A stretch of DNA of 61,032 nucleotides from Thermodesulfobacteriota bacterium (GTDB lineage Bacteria; Desulfobacterota; Dissulfuribacteria; Dissulfuribacterales; QOAL01), in the NCBI GenBank assembly GCA_013154175.1, contig JAADCZ010000110.1, forward strand, positions 1-61,032. The letters run 5' to 3'. Made by a program: the position numbers and the translations under genes. How positions within the stretch are numbered: the stretch's first letter is position 1; the number at the start of each line of letters is the position of its first letter. This document shows, piece after piece, positions 30,695 through 32,801 of the stretch. A model generated the notes under the pieces. That model saw nothing but the letters and a program-made list of their open reading frames with translations, did no database searches and was not told the DNA's origin.

Positions 30695-30878
30695 CTTTTA
30701 TCGTTCTCTATTGTGTTCCTTTTAATTTCTGAAAGGTTCAAAAAACTTAAATCAATTTTAGACCCCACGCCTTCTTCAGCCAAGTAATATTTGAATGCTC
30801 ATTCATTATCATCAACCTTTTTTAATTTAAATCTTTTCTCATGGATTAATCTGAAGAAAAAACGGCGGTGGAGAGAAG

Positions 30879-30909
30879 AAAAAAAGGACAGCACCAGGCT
30901 GTCCTTTTT
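30879..30909. terminator. Bidirectional-looking terminator hairpin downstream of the histone-fold gene
   Basis: AAAAAAA-GGACAGC-5 nt loop-GCTGTCC-TTTTT. On the minus strand it lies 24 nt after the stop of the 30933-31382 gene. Confidence 0.75.
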
Positions 30910-30932: not shown

Positions 30933-31382
30933 CTATATCATAAGATTCAGGATTCTTTCCGCCCTTTCCATATCATCCTTGGAAATAATCTTATCCTTTG
31001 GTGAAAACTCCTTGGTAATATTTGCCATTACGTAAATCAATGTTCCAGTCAGATCAGGCAATTTCTTCTCCAACTCCTCCTCGAGTGCATACTTGAGGGG
31101 CGGCAGGGTTGCCAAGTGATCCAAGATTGGCTGCAGCTCCAGCTCTTCCTCCAGATCCTTGAATTTTTGCATGGATTCCTTCATGGCTTTGGTAAGAGGT
31201 ACATCGCACATCCAGATGACGTCCCTATTGTTGTAACGGGCATTGCCCTCGGCAACCACCAGAAGATCGTACAGTTTCTGATCCACAACATCACTTATTG
31301 CCTTTACCTTGCTCTTATCTATTCTCAATCCGGCGGCCTTCTTGTAAAGGGCCTCGATTTTGTGCGCTCCGGTTACTGCCAT
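30933..31382 (-). CDS. Doublet histone-fold protein (DUF1931-like bacterial histone homologue)
   Basis: 149 aa. The first half aligns by eye to archaeal HMfB (IEALYKKAAGLRIDKSKVKAISDVV...AEGNARYNNRDVIWMCDV versus [25 protein letters not shown]...[18 protein letters not shown], HMfB recalled from memory). The second half repeats the helix-loop-long helix-loop-helix pattern. It has a strong RBS (GAAGGAGGAAAG) and its own terminator. Confidence 0.6.
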   Translation of the reverse strand: MAVTGAHKIEALYKKAAGLRIDKSKVKAISDVVDQKLYDLLVVAEGNARYNNRDVIWMCDVPLTKAMKESMQKFKDLEEELELQPILDHLATLPPLKYALEEELEKKLPDLTGTLIYVMANITKEFSPKDKIISKDDMERAERILNLMI

Positions 31383-31622
31383 TTCGTCTTTCCTCCTTCA
31401 TTTTGCCTTATTTTTGAATTTATCTTCGCTTCACAGCATTATCCATTATGACCTGACTACACGAGCCGGCTCAATAACAAGTCACGGTTCACTGATTTTA
31501 GAAAATCTAAGTCCTTCCAAACAATGTGCAAGGATGGAAAAAATAAAAAACCATATACATAATTCGATTCAGCGTGATTAATATTAAAATTGTAACATCT
31601 CAACTAATTTTTTTGGAGGTCC

Positions 31623-32801
31623 ATGGCCATGGAAAACTTTGAATTCCACAATCCAACCAAAATTGTCTTTGGCTCCGACGCCCTGGACAAAATAGGCCCA
31701 AATGTCAAAGGATTGGGAGACAAGTGCCTTATTGTAACCGGAAGGGAAAGTGCCAAAAAATCAGGCGGTTATGACAAGGTAAAAGGGGAGCTTCAAAAGG
31801 CGGGGATAGAATGTATCGAGCTGACAGGGGTTCAGTCAAACCCAGTCCTTTCCAAGGTTTACGAAGGCATAGAGATGGCCAAAAAGGAAAATGTTGACTT
31901 TGTGGTTGCCATTGGAGGCGGAAGTGTAATGGATACCGCAAAGGCCATCAGCGCCGGAGCCCTACTCGATGGGGATATATGGGATGTATTTCAGGGAAAG
32001 ATGGAGATTGAAACTGCACTTCCAGTGGTCTGCATTCCAACCCTTGCCGCATCGGGCTCAGAGATGAATGGATTCATGGTAATCACCAACGAGGAGACAG
32101 GCCACAAACTCGCGGCTGGTGCTCCTGCAATCTACCCCAAGGTTTCCTTTTTAAATCCGGAACTTACCTTTACCGTCCCCAAAGACTACACTGCCTACGG
32201 GGGCGTGGATGCAATATGTCATCTGCTTGAACCCTATTTCAACGGCCCGGATCCCTACACTCCAGTACAGGACGAAATTGCTGAAGGGCTCATTCGAACC
32301 ATAATGACCGTAACCAGAGGGTGTCTGGACAAACCCCATGACTACCAGAAAAGGGCTGCCCTCATGTGGGCTGCAACCCTTGCCCTAAACGGCCTTACAC
32401 GGGCGGGAGTGGGTGAACATCCCTTCCCTGTGCATCTCATAGAGCATGCCCTCAGTGCCATCTATAAGGTTCCCCACGGAGCTGGCCTGGCTGCCCTGCT
32501 CCCAGGCTGGATGAAATGGAAGGCCACCTACAGGGGGCCTGAAAAGGTGGCCCAGTTCGGGGCAAAATGCCTTGCCTGCTCAGGCAAAAAGGACATCAAG
32601 GATTTGGCCTTCGAGGCAGCGGACACCTTTGCACAGTGGCTCGAAAGCATTGAGTGCCCAAAGAACCTGGGTGGTCTGAATATTCCCCCAGGGGATCATG
32701 AAAAAATTGCTGAAAATGCCCTGTTCCAATCAAAAATATGGGGAATAGAGAACGATTACAGCAAAGAGGTCATTATGGAGATTCTCTCCTTTTGCCAATG
32801 A
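31623..32801 (+). CDS. Iron-containing (group III) alcohol dehydrogenase, butanol dehydrogenase/YqhD-like
   Basis: 392 aa. The GGGSVMD nucleotide-binding motif and the metal-ligand histidines (HLLE, HALS...HGAG) are present. GGAGG RBS is present. Confidence 0.9.
   Translation: MAMENFEFHNPTKIVFGSDALDKIGPNVKGLGDKCLIVTGRESAKKSGGYDKVKGELQKAGIECIELTGVQSNPVLSKVYEGIEMAKKENVDFVVAIGGGSVMDTAKAISAGALLDGDIWDVFQGKMEIETALPVVCIPTLAASGSEMNGFMVITNEETGHKLAAGAPAIYPKVSFLNPELTFTVPKDYTAYGGVDAICHLLEPYFNGPDPYTPVQDEIAEGLIRTIMTVTRGCLDKPHDYQKRAALMWAATLALNGLTRAGVGEHPFPVHLIEHALSAIYKVPHGAGLAALLPGWMKWKATYRGPEKVAQFGAKCLACSGKKDIKDLAFEAADTFAQWLESIECPKNLGGLNIPPGDHEKIAENALFQSKIWGIENDYSKEVIMEILSFCQ

Follow-up and report, generated by a model that had tools for sequence, protein, structure and literature searches.

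A DUF1931 double histone-fold gene of a hydrothermal-vent 'deltaproteobacterial' lineage: an accessory gene, probably not a chromosome-packing histone, with relatives among stress-protection genes

DUF1931 is described as one of the two main histone-fold families of bacteria, and recent surveys of prokaryotic histones repeatedly note it as a probable departure of the histone fold from chromatin, its proteins being without the conserved DNA-binding residues. In PMC10919886, DUF1931 doublets are set against a high-pI doublet. Two crystal structures represent the family, and the published surveys consulted assign it no function, as the initial annotation of this locus also stated. Here, we analyze a member of the family encoded in a 61,032-nt stretch of DNA from a Thermodesulfobacteriota bacterium, to which we refer as the window. 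The solved protein closest to it is Thermus thermophilus TTHA1479 (TTC1115; PDB 1WWI and 1WWS), whose structure, according to a 2026 review, was not accompanied by a paper. TTHA1479 comes from a different phylum but belongs to the same family, is 148 aa long compared with 149 aa for the window protein, is 43% to 44% identical to it, and has a common R-D-x-I...D-L/V-P motif. The founding DUF1931 structure, Aq_328 of Aquifex aeolicus (1R4V), is likewise a one-chain double histone fold, but it is longer (171 aa), more divergent (21% identity), and without the K23, K25, and K27 of the window protein's subfamily.

HMf-type histones, HMk (1F1E), HBb, and HLp share with the window protein both the histone fold and an R...D clamp. 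HMk is also a single-chain doublet, whereas HBb and HLp are singlets of about 60 aa. The literature describes the DNA-binding histones of prokaryotes as basic and as contacting DNA through an L2 RKT(V) motif; the window protein, in contrast, is acidic and carries R-D-V. In Spt3 (of SAGA), the histone domain of Sos, and the TAFs, an intramolecular pseudodimer serves protein rather than DNA contacts, and the 2026 review groups them as "double histone folds." These proteins are eukaryotic, work within large proteins or complexes, and have no sequence relationship to DUF1931, and the likeness would be an analogy of use only. A further point of comparison is the tLST, or YfdX-HdeD, module. Genes related to the window gene share operons with those for YfdX and a DUF308 protein of HdeD type, in some cases with Hsp20 genes nearby, and are distributed as patchily as transferred stress genes would be. 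However, the tLST gene list, as described in the available text, is without a DUF1931 gene, the YfdX proteins of vent organisms are about 300 aa long, and the window copy does not adjoin tLST-type YfdX/HdeD genes.

The open reading frame that the initial annotation had placed at 30933..31382, with a product of 149 aa, was confirmed in its exact coordinates and quoted sequence and lies on the minus strand. It forms part of the following set of features.

30933..31382, minus strand: coding sequence of the DUF1931 (PF09123) double histone-fold protein, 149 aa, ATG start (open reading frame, Pfam match, and predicted model)
31392..31398, minus strand: Shine-Dalgarno sequence AAGGAGG, 9 nt 5' of the ATG, kept in five aligned orthologous loci
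31504..31531, minus strand: putative sigma-70-like promoter (consensus match and conservation)
30881..30909, minus strand: intrinsic terminator with a 12-bp stem, a 5-nt loop, and a T-run, 24 nt 3' of the stop codon
30881..31531, minus strand: self-contained cassette of promoter, gene, and terminator, present or absent among genomes of the genus

The putative promoter combines a -35 element, TTGCAC (31531-31526), a 16-nt spacer, and a -10 element, TAGATT (31509-31504), and would imply a 5' untranslated region of about 110 nt. Its core columns are invariant in an alignment of five same-genus loci, while the remainder of the intergenic spacer toward the divergent iron alcohol dehydrogenase gene varies. 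On its other side, the gene is flanked by an ECF sigma operon (sigma/anti-sigma), from which it is divided by the terminator. The description of the gene as monocistronic, with a strong ribosome binding site and its own terminator, is borne out by the AAGGAGG at 31398-31392 and by the stem-loop and T-run at 30909-30881. By these sequence signals, the window gene would be transcribed on its own; it is an accessory gene of a "deltaproteobacterial" lineage from hydrothermal vents.

Residues 9 to 146 of the product cover the whole PF09123 profile of Pfam (positions 1 to 138 of 138) with an E value of 6.8e-49 and a score of 166.1 bits (gathering cut-off, 21.8); chance is excluded as the source of this match, and each half of the protein alone also matches the corresponding half of the profile. 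Among PDB sequences, 1wwi_A (E value, 1.8e-36) and 1r4v_A (8.8e-13) were matched. No NCBIfam family and no PADLOC defence family matched the window protein, and a tblastn search of phage records returned no match to the DUF1931 protein. An AlphaFold2 model built from a 27-row alignment (mean pLDDT, 90.3; pTM, 0.85) predicts helices at residues 6-17, 23-50, 65-76, 83-90, 102-126, and 135-147, corresponding to the two consecutive helix/long-helix/helix units first read from the sequence; fold 1 would span approximately residues 6-62 and fold 2 residues 83-147. BLASTP detected no similarity between the two halves.

Structural comparison of this model, using Foldseek and VIA-align, placed it closest to 1WWI (TM, 0.94; Z, 24.7; rmsd, 1.0 over 146 residues), followed by 1R4V (TM, 0.80; Z, 16.2), and the next 38 or so matches of the model are histone-fold pairs without exception. 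Its best match outside the family is Spt3 (Z, 12.5), with the M. kandleri doublet 1F1E at a Z of 11.8, single-chain H2A-H2B at about 11, and the Sos domain at 10.9; HMk, H2A-H2B, and viral doublets match the model at a Z of 10 to 12 over about 140 residues. Both the histone-fold structures and the DUF1931 HMM, against which the initial annotation had proposed to check the protein, were matched, and the initial annotation was right to see a free-standing double histone fold of DUF1931 type with kinship to Aq_328. The window gene encodes a DUF1931 protein, a single 149-residue chain whose model folds as a histone-like pseudodimer, and is an ordinary addition to a family catalogued since 2004-2006.

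HMMER aligns the family profile with the archaeal histone HmvA (8bdk_A) and with a histone H4 chain in the register first noted, albeit at E values of 0.09 to 0.17, which are not significant by sequence alone, and against solved histones overall the profile reaches only 0.09 to 0.7. Neither PF00808 (CBFD_NFYB_HMF) nor PF00125 (Histone) matched the whole protein or its halves at an E value of ≤10, in a search whose HMMER filters drop many very weak matches, and elsewhere in the genome no PF00808 match lay above the cut-off and no PF00125 match was found. The A-R-x-x-x-R-x-x-I stretch that had drawn attention to the L2 region is A48-R49-...-R53-D54-V55-I56, and the profile alignment sets R-D-V-I-W-x-x-D under the histone G-R-K-T-I-K-x-x-D. 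Of the histone L2 RKT motif, the structural clamp R53...D60 is kept, with Lys replaced by Asp54 and Thr by Val55. Among 56 family representatives of 25% to 61% identity, R53 is conserved in 91%, position 54 is acidic in 84%, and D60 and P62 are conserved in 95% and 100%, respectively; the window protein has all of the family-conserved R53, acidic 54, D60, P62, T64, and G113, and has Ala in place of G66, which is conserved in 95% of the same alignment. Of the basic DNA-contact residues, whose conservation the initial annotation had singled out for checking, the L2 Lys is replaced by Asp54 here, and its position is acidic in most of the family.

The whole window protein has a pI of 5.51 and a net charge of -3, and the median pI of the family is 5.2, with only 8% above pI 8 among 147 stored proteins of 140 to 165 aa, which are search matches and mostly, though not entirely, full-length members. 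By comparison, pIs of 9.0 to 10.8 were obtained for the five HU/IHF domains encoded in this genome. As far as the sequence can tell, the basic DNA-binding ridge, whose lack had been named as evidence against a DNA-binding histone, is missing. Thus, of the proposed "candidate bacterial histone," the histone pseudodimer fold stands, while the DNA-organizing role is not supported, given an acidic protein with R-D-V in L2, a patchy distribution, and no histone Pfam match. We consider that the window protein is probably not a canonical DNA-wrapping or DNA-bending histone, because it is acidic and has Asp and Val in place of the DNA-contacting Lys and Thr, and because the gene is absent from most relatives and five basic HU/IHF genes are available for nucleoid work. 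The lack of DNA-gripping features and the occurrence of its relatives among stress-protection genes likewise argue that the protein probably does not pack the chromosome.

Of the 61 relatives, 8 carry PF09123, as do 5 of the 10 other members of the genus, 55 of 151 Aquificota genomes, 18 of 201 Campylobacterota genomes, and, in an even sample of the phylum, 2 of 301 genomes, both from this genus, many of the genomes counted being incomplete metagenome-assembled genomes (MAGs). The persistence expected of a main chromatin protein is not seen in these counts (8/61, 2/301, 55/151, and 18/201). A same-genus genome that is 99% complete (G008) has an empty site, in which the alcohol dehydrogenase and ECF sigma genes lie 286 nt apart, its ECF sigma protein being 68% identical to that of the window. 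In the family tree, the window protein belongs to a clade of eight "Delta" rows (SH-aLRT, 94), which falls within a larger group (support, 100%; 34 rows) to which Campylobacterota contribute 26 rows; the nearest relatives beyond the window's "Delta" lineage are Campylobacterota. Since a constraint uniting the 26 Campylobacterota rows was not rejected (p-AU, 0.786), nesting of the "Delta" clade within Campylobacterota is not demonstrated by the tree, and it is the distribution only that suggests acquisition of the DUF1931 gene by the "Delta" lineage.

The surroundings of the relatives follow a recurring theme. Within 2.5 kb of DUF1931, 52 of 81 loci carry one or more of the nine stress or proteostasis families that were recognized, with 32 of 38 in Campylobacterota, 16 of 22 in other Aquificota, 2 of 3 in Chloroflexota, 2 of 8 in the "Delta" group, and 0 of 10 in Desulfurobacteriaceae. 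In vent Campylobacterota and Aquificota, DUF1931 occurs in operons with genes for the periplasmic, chaperone-like YfdX and for a DUF308 membrane protein resembling HdeD: DUF308 directly adjoins DUF1931 on its 5' or 3' side in 26 cases, with gaps of 3 to 29 nt, and a YfdX gene lies 10 to 85 nt upstream in 16. According to PMC6394985, YfdX is an acid-stress chaperone in Klebsiella. Across the 151 Aquificota, 31 of the 39 genomes with YfdX carry DUF1931 (odds ratio, 14, among kin that are not independent). Neighbors in other relatives include prefoldin, peroxiredoxin, DnaJ with a MerR-type regulator and HtrA, Skp, M48 peptidases, ferritin-like proteins, and DJ-1/PfpI. On actinobacterial and cyanobacterial plasmids, DUF1931 ends dnaK-grpE-dnaJ-cbpM-clpB-trxA clusters or adjoins groESL, hsp20, or dnaK; in Nocardia, it closes a row of genes on one strand, dnaK-grpE-J-cbpM-clpB-trxA-...-oxidoreductase, following a 14-nt gap. 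In all six plasmid records inspected, of 20 with a DUF1931 match, DnaK, GroEL, Hsp20, ClpB, thioredoxin, or a "general stress protein" is annotated within 7 kb.

Such neighborhoods are associations rather than mechanisms, and MAGs or plasmids that are related do not count as independent cases. Stress queries matched 89 of 434 genes within 2.5 kb and 6 of 306 genes farther away, a contrast with a bias, since near neighbors had supplied 9 of the 19 query proteins; ten canonical chaperone queries alone gave no near enrichment in vent loci. The Desulfurobacteriaceae-type loci have purL, DUF2148, or CorA-like neighbors in 10 of 10 cases and no recognized stress family. In the open-literature text searched, no link between DUF1931 and stress genes was found, and the position of DUF1931 relatives among stress and protein quality control genes is, as far as the literature searched shows, a new observation.

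Taken as a whole, with a probability of roughly 0.5, we read the window gene as encoding an accessory DUF1931 pseudodimer that is not a canonical histone and whose family acts in stress tolerance or in the quality control of proteins, the latter part being suggested by the relatives, because DUF1931 genes repeatedly lie in YfdX/DUF308 operons and chaperone clusters. Against this stands the view, which we find doubtful, that the stress neighborhoods reflect hitch-hiking in mobile or variable regions and that the protein has another role, for example, as a regulatory adaptor of transcription or signaling proteins, or as a stable helical protein kept for non-stress reasons. The contexts do vary by lineage without a universal partner, transposases flank the plasmid copies, further neighbors include GGDEF, Crp/Fnr, AraC, and MCP genes, and the window copy itself adjoins the ECF sigma/anti-sigma operon and has no chaperone neighbors; moreover, the eukaryotic double histone folds Spt3 and Sos act in transcription and signaling. 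Against hitch-hiking speak the tight, probably translationally coupled spacing to DUF308 or YfdX, in which the order is shuffled but the adjacency kept, the co-occurrence with YfdX across the Aquificota, and a stress theme that recurs in five phyla with differing gene sets. That the window frame is a nonfunctional, decaying remnant of a transferred cassette is highly improbable: the gene is solitary where relatives carry extra genes, as in the order alcohol dehydrogenase, then membrane protein, DUF308, membrane protein, and DUF1931 at locus L019, but the reading frame is unbroken over its full length, no family member scores higher, and the gene product is 85% to 97% identical to intact orthologues of several genomes, contains all family-invariant residues, and has a conserved putative promoter, Shine-Dalgarno sequence, and terminator.

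It also appears unlikely that the protein is an abundant, nucleoid-associated "bacterial histone" binding DNA through a noncanonical surface, such as the L1/alpha2 patch of fold 1 together with L2 of fold 2. Such a protein would be in keeping with the pseudodimer fold of the model and with the strong Shine-Dalgarno sequence, conserved putative promoter, and separate terminator of the gene. The N-terminal fold is mildly basic (net charge, +2; pI, 8.8), with R20, K23, K25, and K27 at its L1/alpha2 junction, so that a noncanonical nucleic acid site is conceivable; these residues and K129/K131 lie in loops that would form one L1-L2 site, and the K23 position is basic in 91% of the 56 representatives. 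Published sources describe aq_328/aq_616 of A. aeolicus and TTC1115 of T. thermophilus as highly expressed, place the Thermus gene in a "less permissive" transposon insertion class, and show through HBb that unconventional binding modes are possible for bacterial histones; high expression and few tolerated insertions would also fit an abundant nucleoid protein. On the other hand, K25, K27, and R20 belong to the window's subfamily and are not conserved family-wide, position 20 being acidic in 70% of the representatives and the L2 Lys position in 84%, the protein (pI 5.5) and its family (median 5.2) are acidic, 53 of the 61 relatives and 299 of the 301 genomes sampled across the phylum have no copy of the gene, the genome has five HU/IHF genes, and published analyses find the DNA-binding residues missing.

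Returning to the accessory, stress-related pseudodimer, DUF1931 would probably be a small cytoplasmic protein-binding module, by analogy with the non-DNA-binding histone-fold pairs of Spt3/TAF or Sos. We tentatively extend this to a fuller scheme in which DUF1931 is not a chromatin protein but the cytoplasmic part of often laterally transferred stress sets, the histone fold having been recruited to proteostasis or envelope stress protection. In vent Campylobacterota and Aquificota, it would act with periplasmic YfdX and an HdeD-like membrane protein in a module spanning three compartments, and the plasmids of actinobacteria and cyanobacteria would carry it as a companion of extra DnaK/ClpB/GroEL/Hsp20/thioredoxin sets. 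The window gene would then have reached a vent lineage of the sulfate-reducer type as a pared-down copy with its own expression; as this copy is solitary, with no YfdX, HdeD-like (DUF308), or chaperone cluster gene adjoining, a stress role would be assigned to it by homology. The recurring YfdX/HdeD-like, prefoldin, peroxiredoxin, DnaJ/HtrA, and plasmid chaperone contexts give concrete hypotheses for the function of DUF1931. If the stress link is true, bacteria would offer an instance of a histone fold employed for something other than DNA packaging, and the YfdX/HdeD stress module, which is poorly understood, would gain a component.

Searching 87 loci for the HAIR and CIRCE heat shock operators, with the consensus sequences entered as short motifs, gave 3 and 1 matches compared with 1.2 and 4.2 in shuffled sequences, that is, no enrichment. 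Complex prediction for the DUF308 and DUF1931 pair of locus L027, from 25-row alignments, returned a score of 0.00 and a mark of 0.32 and counts neither way. The genome of the window has a UPF0128/DUF308/YfdX set of its own on another contig (C96), whose DUF308 is only 22% to 27% identical to the type that adjoins DUF1931. Elsewhere, two Hsp20 genes and YfdX lie near DUF1931 at locus L020, and one genome (G412) carries two DUF1931 paralogues with ferritin-like and DJ-1/PfpI neighbors.

Our analyses placed the protein encoded at 30933..31382 in the DUF1931 family by every test applied. DUF1931 (PF09123) was its sole Pfam match, spanning the whole profile (E 6.8e-49, positions 1-138 of 138), NCBIfam held no model for it, and its two sequence relatives in the PDB were 1wwi_A (Thermus thermophilus TTHA1479; E 1.8e-36) and 1r4v_A (Aquifex aeolicus Aq_328; E 8.8e-13). 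From an alignment of 27 homologues, AlphaFold2 gave a model (mean pLDDT 90.3, pTM 0.85) with six predicted helices that form two helix/long-helix/helix units; no sequence similarity was detected between the two halves. The model matched 1WWI and 1R4V with TM scores of 0.94 and 0.80 in Foldseek and Z scores of 24.7 and 16.2 in VIA-align, and the 38 VIA-align entries ranking after them were nearly all histone-fold pairs or doublets. It superposes on Spt3 of SAGA, a histone-fold pair, at Z 12.5, on the Methanopyrus doublet histone 1F1E at Z 11.8 and on single-chain H2A-H2B constructs at about Z 11; Melbournevirus doublets and the Sos histone domain were also among its histone-fold matches. The initial annotation had recognized a doublet histone fold and recommended comparison with the DUF1931 HMM and, through Foldseek, with histone-fold structures; the full-length profile match and the structural matches of the predicted model bear this out. 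Its register of alignment was reproduced when the HMMER family profile was compared with the solved archaeal histone HmvA and a histone H4 chain, at E values of only 0.09-0.17.

The ORF lies exactly where the initial annotation had put it, and the strong ribosome-binding site and terminator claimed for it are both present:

30933..31382, minus strand: DUF1931 ORF, 149 aa, ATG start (ORF check of the window)
31398-31392, minus strand: perfect Shine-Dalgarno AAGGAGG, 9 nt upstream of the ATG (from the sequence)
30909-30881, minus strand: predicted terminator, a 12-bp stem-loop followed by a T-run, 24 nt past the stop (from the sequence)
31531-31504, minus strand: sigma-70-type promoter-like element in the sense of the gene, TTGCAC, 16 nt, TAGATT (consensus and conservation)
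31623-32801, plus strand: iron alcohol dehydrogenase, a neighbor divergent from the DUF1931 gene
from 30694, minus strand: start of an ECF sigma operon, the neighbor on the other side

When the upstream spacer was aligned with four orthologous loci of related genomes, it proved mostly unalignable, with the promoter-like block invariant in all five. On sequence grounds, the gene appears to be driven by this block of its own and, with its strong Shine-Dalgarno and terminator, would be a self-contained transcription unit. Beyond it, the alcohol dehydrogenase (plus strand) and TatC (minus strand) ORFs converge with a 29-nt overlap at 32773-32801, a pattern that recurs in the same-genus genome G008 and in G007 (loci L102 and L103).

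The initial annotation had gone further and named the protein a candidate bacterial histone. The histone fold stands; a DNA-organizing role is not supported, as the protein is acidic, lacks the L2 lysine and threonine and is encoded by a patchily distributed gene. Of the features that define DNA-organizing histones, the protein fails four (charge, DNA-contact residues, models and distribution). Its pI is 5.51 and its net charge -3 (+2 in the N-terminal and -5 in the C-terminal fold), and the five HU/IHF domains of its genome have pIs of 9.0-10.8. Among 147 stored search matches of 140-165 aa, most but not all of them full-length DUF1931 members, the median pI is 5.2 and 8% lie above pI 8. According to Hocher et al., no part of histones that touches DNA is more conserved than the L2 loop "RKTV," which is held by an "RD clamp." In profile-to-histone alignments, the histone G-R-K-T-I-K-x-x-D falls over R53-D54-V55-I56-W-x-x-D60 of DUF1931, such that the window protein retains the clamp (R53 and D60) but has an acidic residue in place of the L2 lysine and valine in place of the threonine. 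Among 56 family representatives (25-61% identical to the window protein), R53 is conserved in 91%, D60 in 95% and P62 in 100%, and position 54 is acidic in 84%. Position 20, which the initial annotation had paired with a basic L1 residue, is acidic in 70% of them and arginine in the window protein. No histone Pfam model matched the whole protein or either half at E <= 10, and no other histone-fold gene scored above the cutoff in the window's genome. The protein is thus probably not a functional histone, because of its acidic charge, its L2 changes, the lack of histone model matches and the patchy distribution.

The family, its fold and its loss of DNA-binding residues are already in print. The HLp paper ranks DUF1931 among the two main histone families of bacteria, "roles beyond genome organization" are suggested by Schwab et al. 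(2024), a 2026 review devoted to double histone folds regards the role as unclear, and another review (PMC10919886) sets DUF1931 doublets against a high-pI doublet. As a counterpoint, Aquifex aq_328 and aq_616 and Thermus TTC1115 appear among the highly expressed histone-fold genes in Hocher et al., and a Thermus Tn-seq preprint puts the DUF1931 gene in the "less permissive" class. We consider a genuine noncanonical nucleoid protein improbable.

The family is small: an exhaustive profile search through 1.84 billion representative clusters found 575 at E <= 0.001. PF09123 was found in 8 of 61 related genomes, including 5 of 10 others in the same genus and, from two further genera, 1 of 5 and 1 of 3. 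Among Aquificota, 55 of 151 genomes carry it, and among Campylobacterota 18 of 201. An even sample of 301 genomes from the phylum yielded it twice, each time in the window's genus. This near-absence from the rest of the phylum suggests that the gene was acquired by the window's lineage. A homolog search returned 88 proteins, some of them above about 80% identity; those from Hydrogenothermus, Hydrogenimonas, Desulfurobacterium and Persephonella share 53-69%. Among species-representative genomes, 287 stretches encode relatives; the best 80 comprise seven Deltaproteobacteria/Desulfobacterales-labeled ("Delta") MAGs at 80-90% identity, along with Campylobacterota, Aquificota and three Chloroflexota. 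In a quick 80-row maximum-likelihood tree, the window protein grouped in an eight-row "Delta" clade (SH-aLRT 94) within a fully supported set of 34, of which 26 are Campylobacterota. Campylobacterota monophyly was not rejected by the AU test (p 0.786), and the tree therefore gives no direction of transfer. In G008 (99% complete), an empty gap of 286 nt separates the alcohol dehydrogenase gene from the ECF sigma gene, whose protein is 68% identical to the window's and whose proximal promoter region is still alignable; because of this empty site, the ~650-bp DUF1931 cassette is a presence/absence polymorphism. Just upstream of the ECF sigma gene, the minus-strand stretch at 30700-30790, which includes TTTTTTGAACCTTT, can be aligned with G008 despite the absence of the cassette there and is likely an autoregulated ECF promoter.

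To examine neighborhoods, ORFs were called in the best 80 of the 287 loci and the window, their 819 products were clustered by BLASTP and cluster representatives were annotated with Pfam. At least one of nine stress/proteostasis families lies within 2.5 kb in 52 of these 81 loci: 32/38 in Campylobacterota, 16/22 in other Aquificota, 2/3 in Chloroflexota, 2/8 in "Delta" and 0/10 in the Desulfurobacteriaceae type, where the row is purL | DUF1931 - DUF2148 - CorA-like. The usual Campylobacterota row is Crp/Fnr - CorA-like - YfdX (PF10938, ~300 aa) - DUF308 (PF03729, HdeD-like) - DUF1931 - 1-Cys peroxiredoxin, with DUF308 at times on the opposite side; 26 of the 38 Campylobacterota loci have DUF308 within 2.5-3 kb. 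Across all loci, DUF308 and DUF1931 on the same strand are separated by 3-29 nt in 26 of the 27 cases; YfdX lies 10-85 nt upstream in 16 loci. A published study (PMC6394985) reports YfdX acting as an acid-stress chaperone in Klebsiella. A Hydrogenothermaceae-type Aquificota row, UPF0128 - unknown - prefoldin - YfdX - (two unknowns) - DUF1931 - UPF0114, recurs in a complete genome. Other Aquificota loci carry an M48/TPR peptidase upstream, Skp/OmpH downstream, or DnaJ with a MerR-type (HspR/CbpM-like) gene alongside, and Chloroflexota have DnaJ - MerR-type - HtrA-like protease - DUF1931 on one strand. In a 1.55-Mb Aquificota genome, one of two DUF1931 paralogs is followed after 30 nt by a ferritin-like/rubrerythrin gene and the other after 11 nt by a DJ-1/PfpI gene. 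The closest relative outside the window's genus (same family; L020, 415-9072) has a compact heat or osmotic-stress gene set of inositol-1-phosphate synthase, two Hsp20, MCP, YfdX, DUF1931 and a membrane M48 peptidase.

By tblastn, DUF1931 genes also occur on 20 plasmid records (15 Rhodococcus, 3 Nostocales, 1 Streptomyces and 1 Nocardia), and all six inspected carry annotated chaperone or stress genes within 7 kb. In Trichormus and Nostoc, dnaK, a thioredoxin-domain gene, hsp20 and groEL-groES adjoin DUF1931; on the Streptomyces plasmid, dnaK and a gene for a "general stress protein" lie nearby. Nocardia (L111, 1-7450) and Rhodococcus (L112 and L108) plasmids share the one-strand row dnaK-grpE-J-domain-cbpM-clpB-trxA-(UBP zinc finger)-(FAD oxidoreductase)-DUF1931. 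This full extra heat-shock row on large plasmids, with hsp20 nearby, looks like a Gram-positive equivalent of the stress-tolerance locus of proteobacteria.

From the predicted model, the window protein appears to be a compact, acidic, single-chain histone pseudodimer. The structural core, including the R53-D60 clamp, would have been kept and the DNA-gripping loops re-surfaced, leaving the fold to serve as a protein-binding platform, as it does, by analogy only, in the nonchromatin histone-fold pairs of Spt3/TAFs and in the Sos histone domain. Judging from the relatives, its partner or client may belong to stress protection: in hydrothermal-vent bacteria, protection from envelope, acid or heat stress by way of YfdX/HdeD-like proteins, and elsewhere chaperone or redox systems. 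We give this combined reading a probability of about 0.5. A function unrelated to stress is doubtful but carries some weight. None of the relatives' stress neighbors adjoin the window copy, canonical cytoplasmic chaperones alone were not enriched beside the vent copies, and HAIR/CIRCE heat-shock operators were not enriched near DUF1931 genes in 87 loci scanned. Stress genes numbered 89/434 near and 6/306 far from DUF1931, a count biased by query choice, and same-vent MAGs and related plasmids are nonindependent observations. In 151 Aquificota, 31 genomes have both YfdX and DUF1931, 24 only DUF1931, 8 only YfdX and 88 neither (odds ratio 14; nominal Fisher p 1.7e-10, overstated since kin are not independent). 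YfdX is present in 8/8 DUF1931-bearing relatives, yet also in 24/26 genomes of the family, so that this overlap says little. The stress-gene neighborhood was not found in the literature searched, with supplements, figures and subscription journals outside the search; its recurrence gives this family, which has two structures and no assigned function, a lead that can be tested.

In the window's genome, UPF0128 | DUF308 - YfdX, the families that flank DUF1931 in Aquificota and Campylobacterota, lie on a separate contig (C96; L101, 6086-10907), where a divergent UPF0128 gene lies next to a row of DUF308, YfdX with a signal peptide, a 386-aa protein without annotation, an ion-transport channel and GlnE. 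This DUF308 shares only 22-27% identity with the type linked to DUF1931. A second DUF308 gene (contig C148; L098, 1213-2540) has a different context, preceded by genes for a CrcB-like fluoride channel and a 121-aa protein. A MAG in the window's genus-level DUF1931 clade (L019, 998-3409; DUF1931 85% identical) has three extra genes between alcohol dehydrogenase and DUF1931, encoding a 248-aa glycine-zipper-like membrane protein, DUF308 and a 179-aa membrane protein; a four-gene cassette of this kind may have shrunk to, or grown from, the solitary gene seen in the window. In the complete Aquificota genome G402 (L130, 3394-8390; also L062, L070 and L073), the conserved row consists of UPF0128, a 240-aa protein, prefoldin (PF02996), YfdX, two proteins of ~155 and ~188 aa without Pfam matches, DUF1931 and UPF0114, a prefoldin-centered bacterial operon with three unannotated members that merits its own study.
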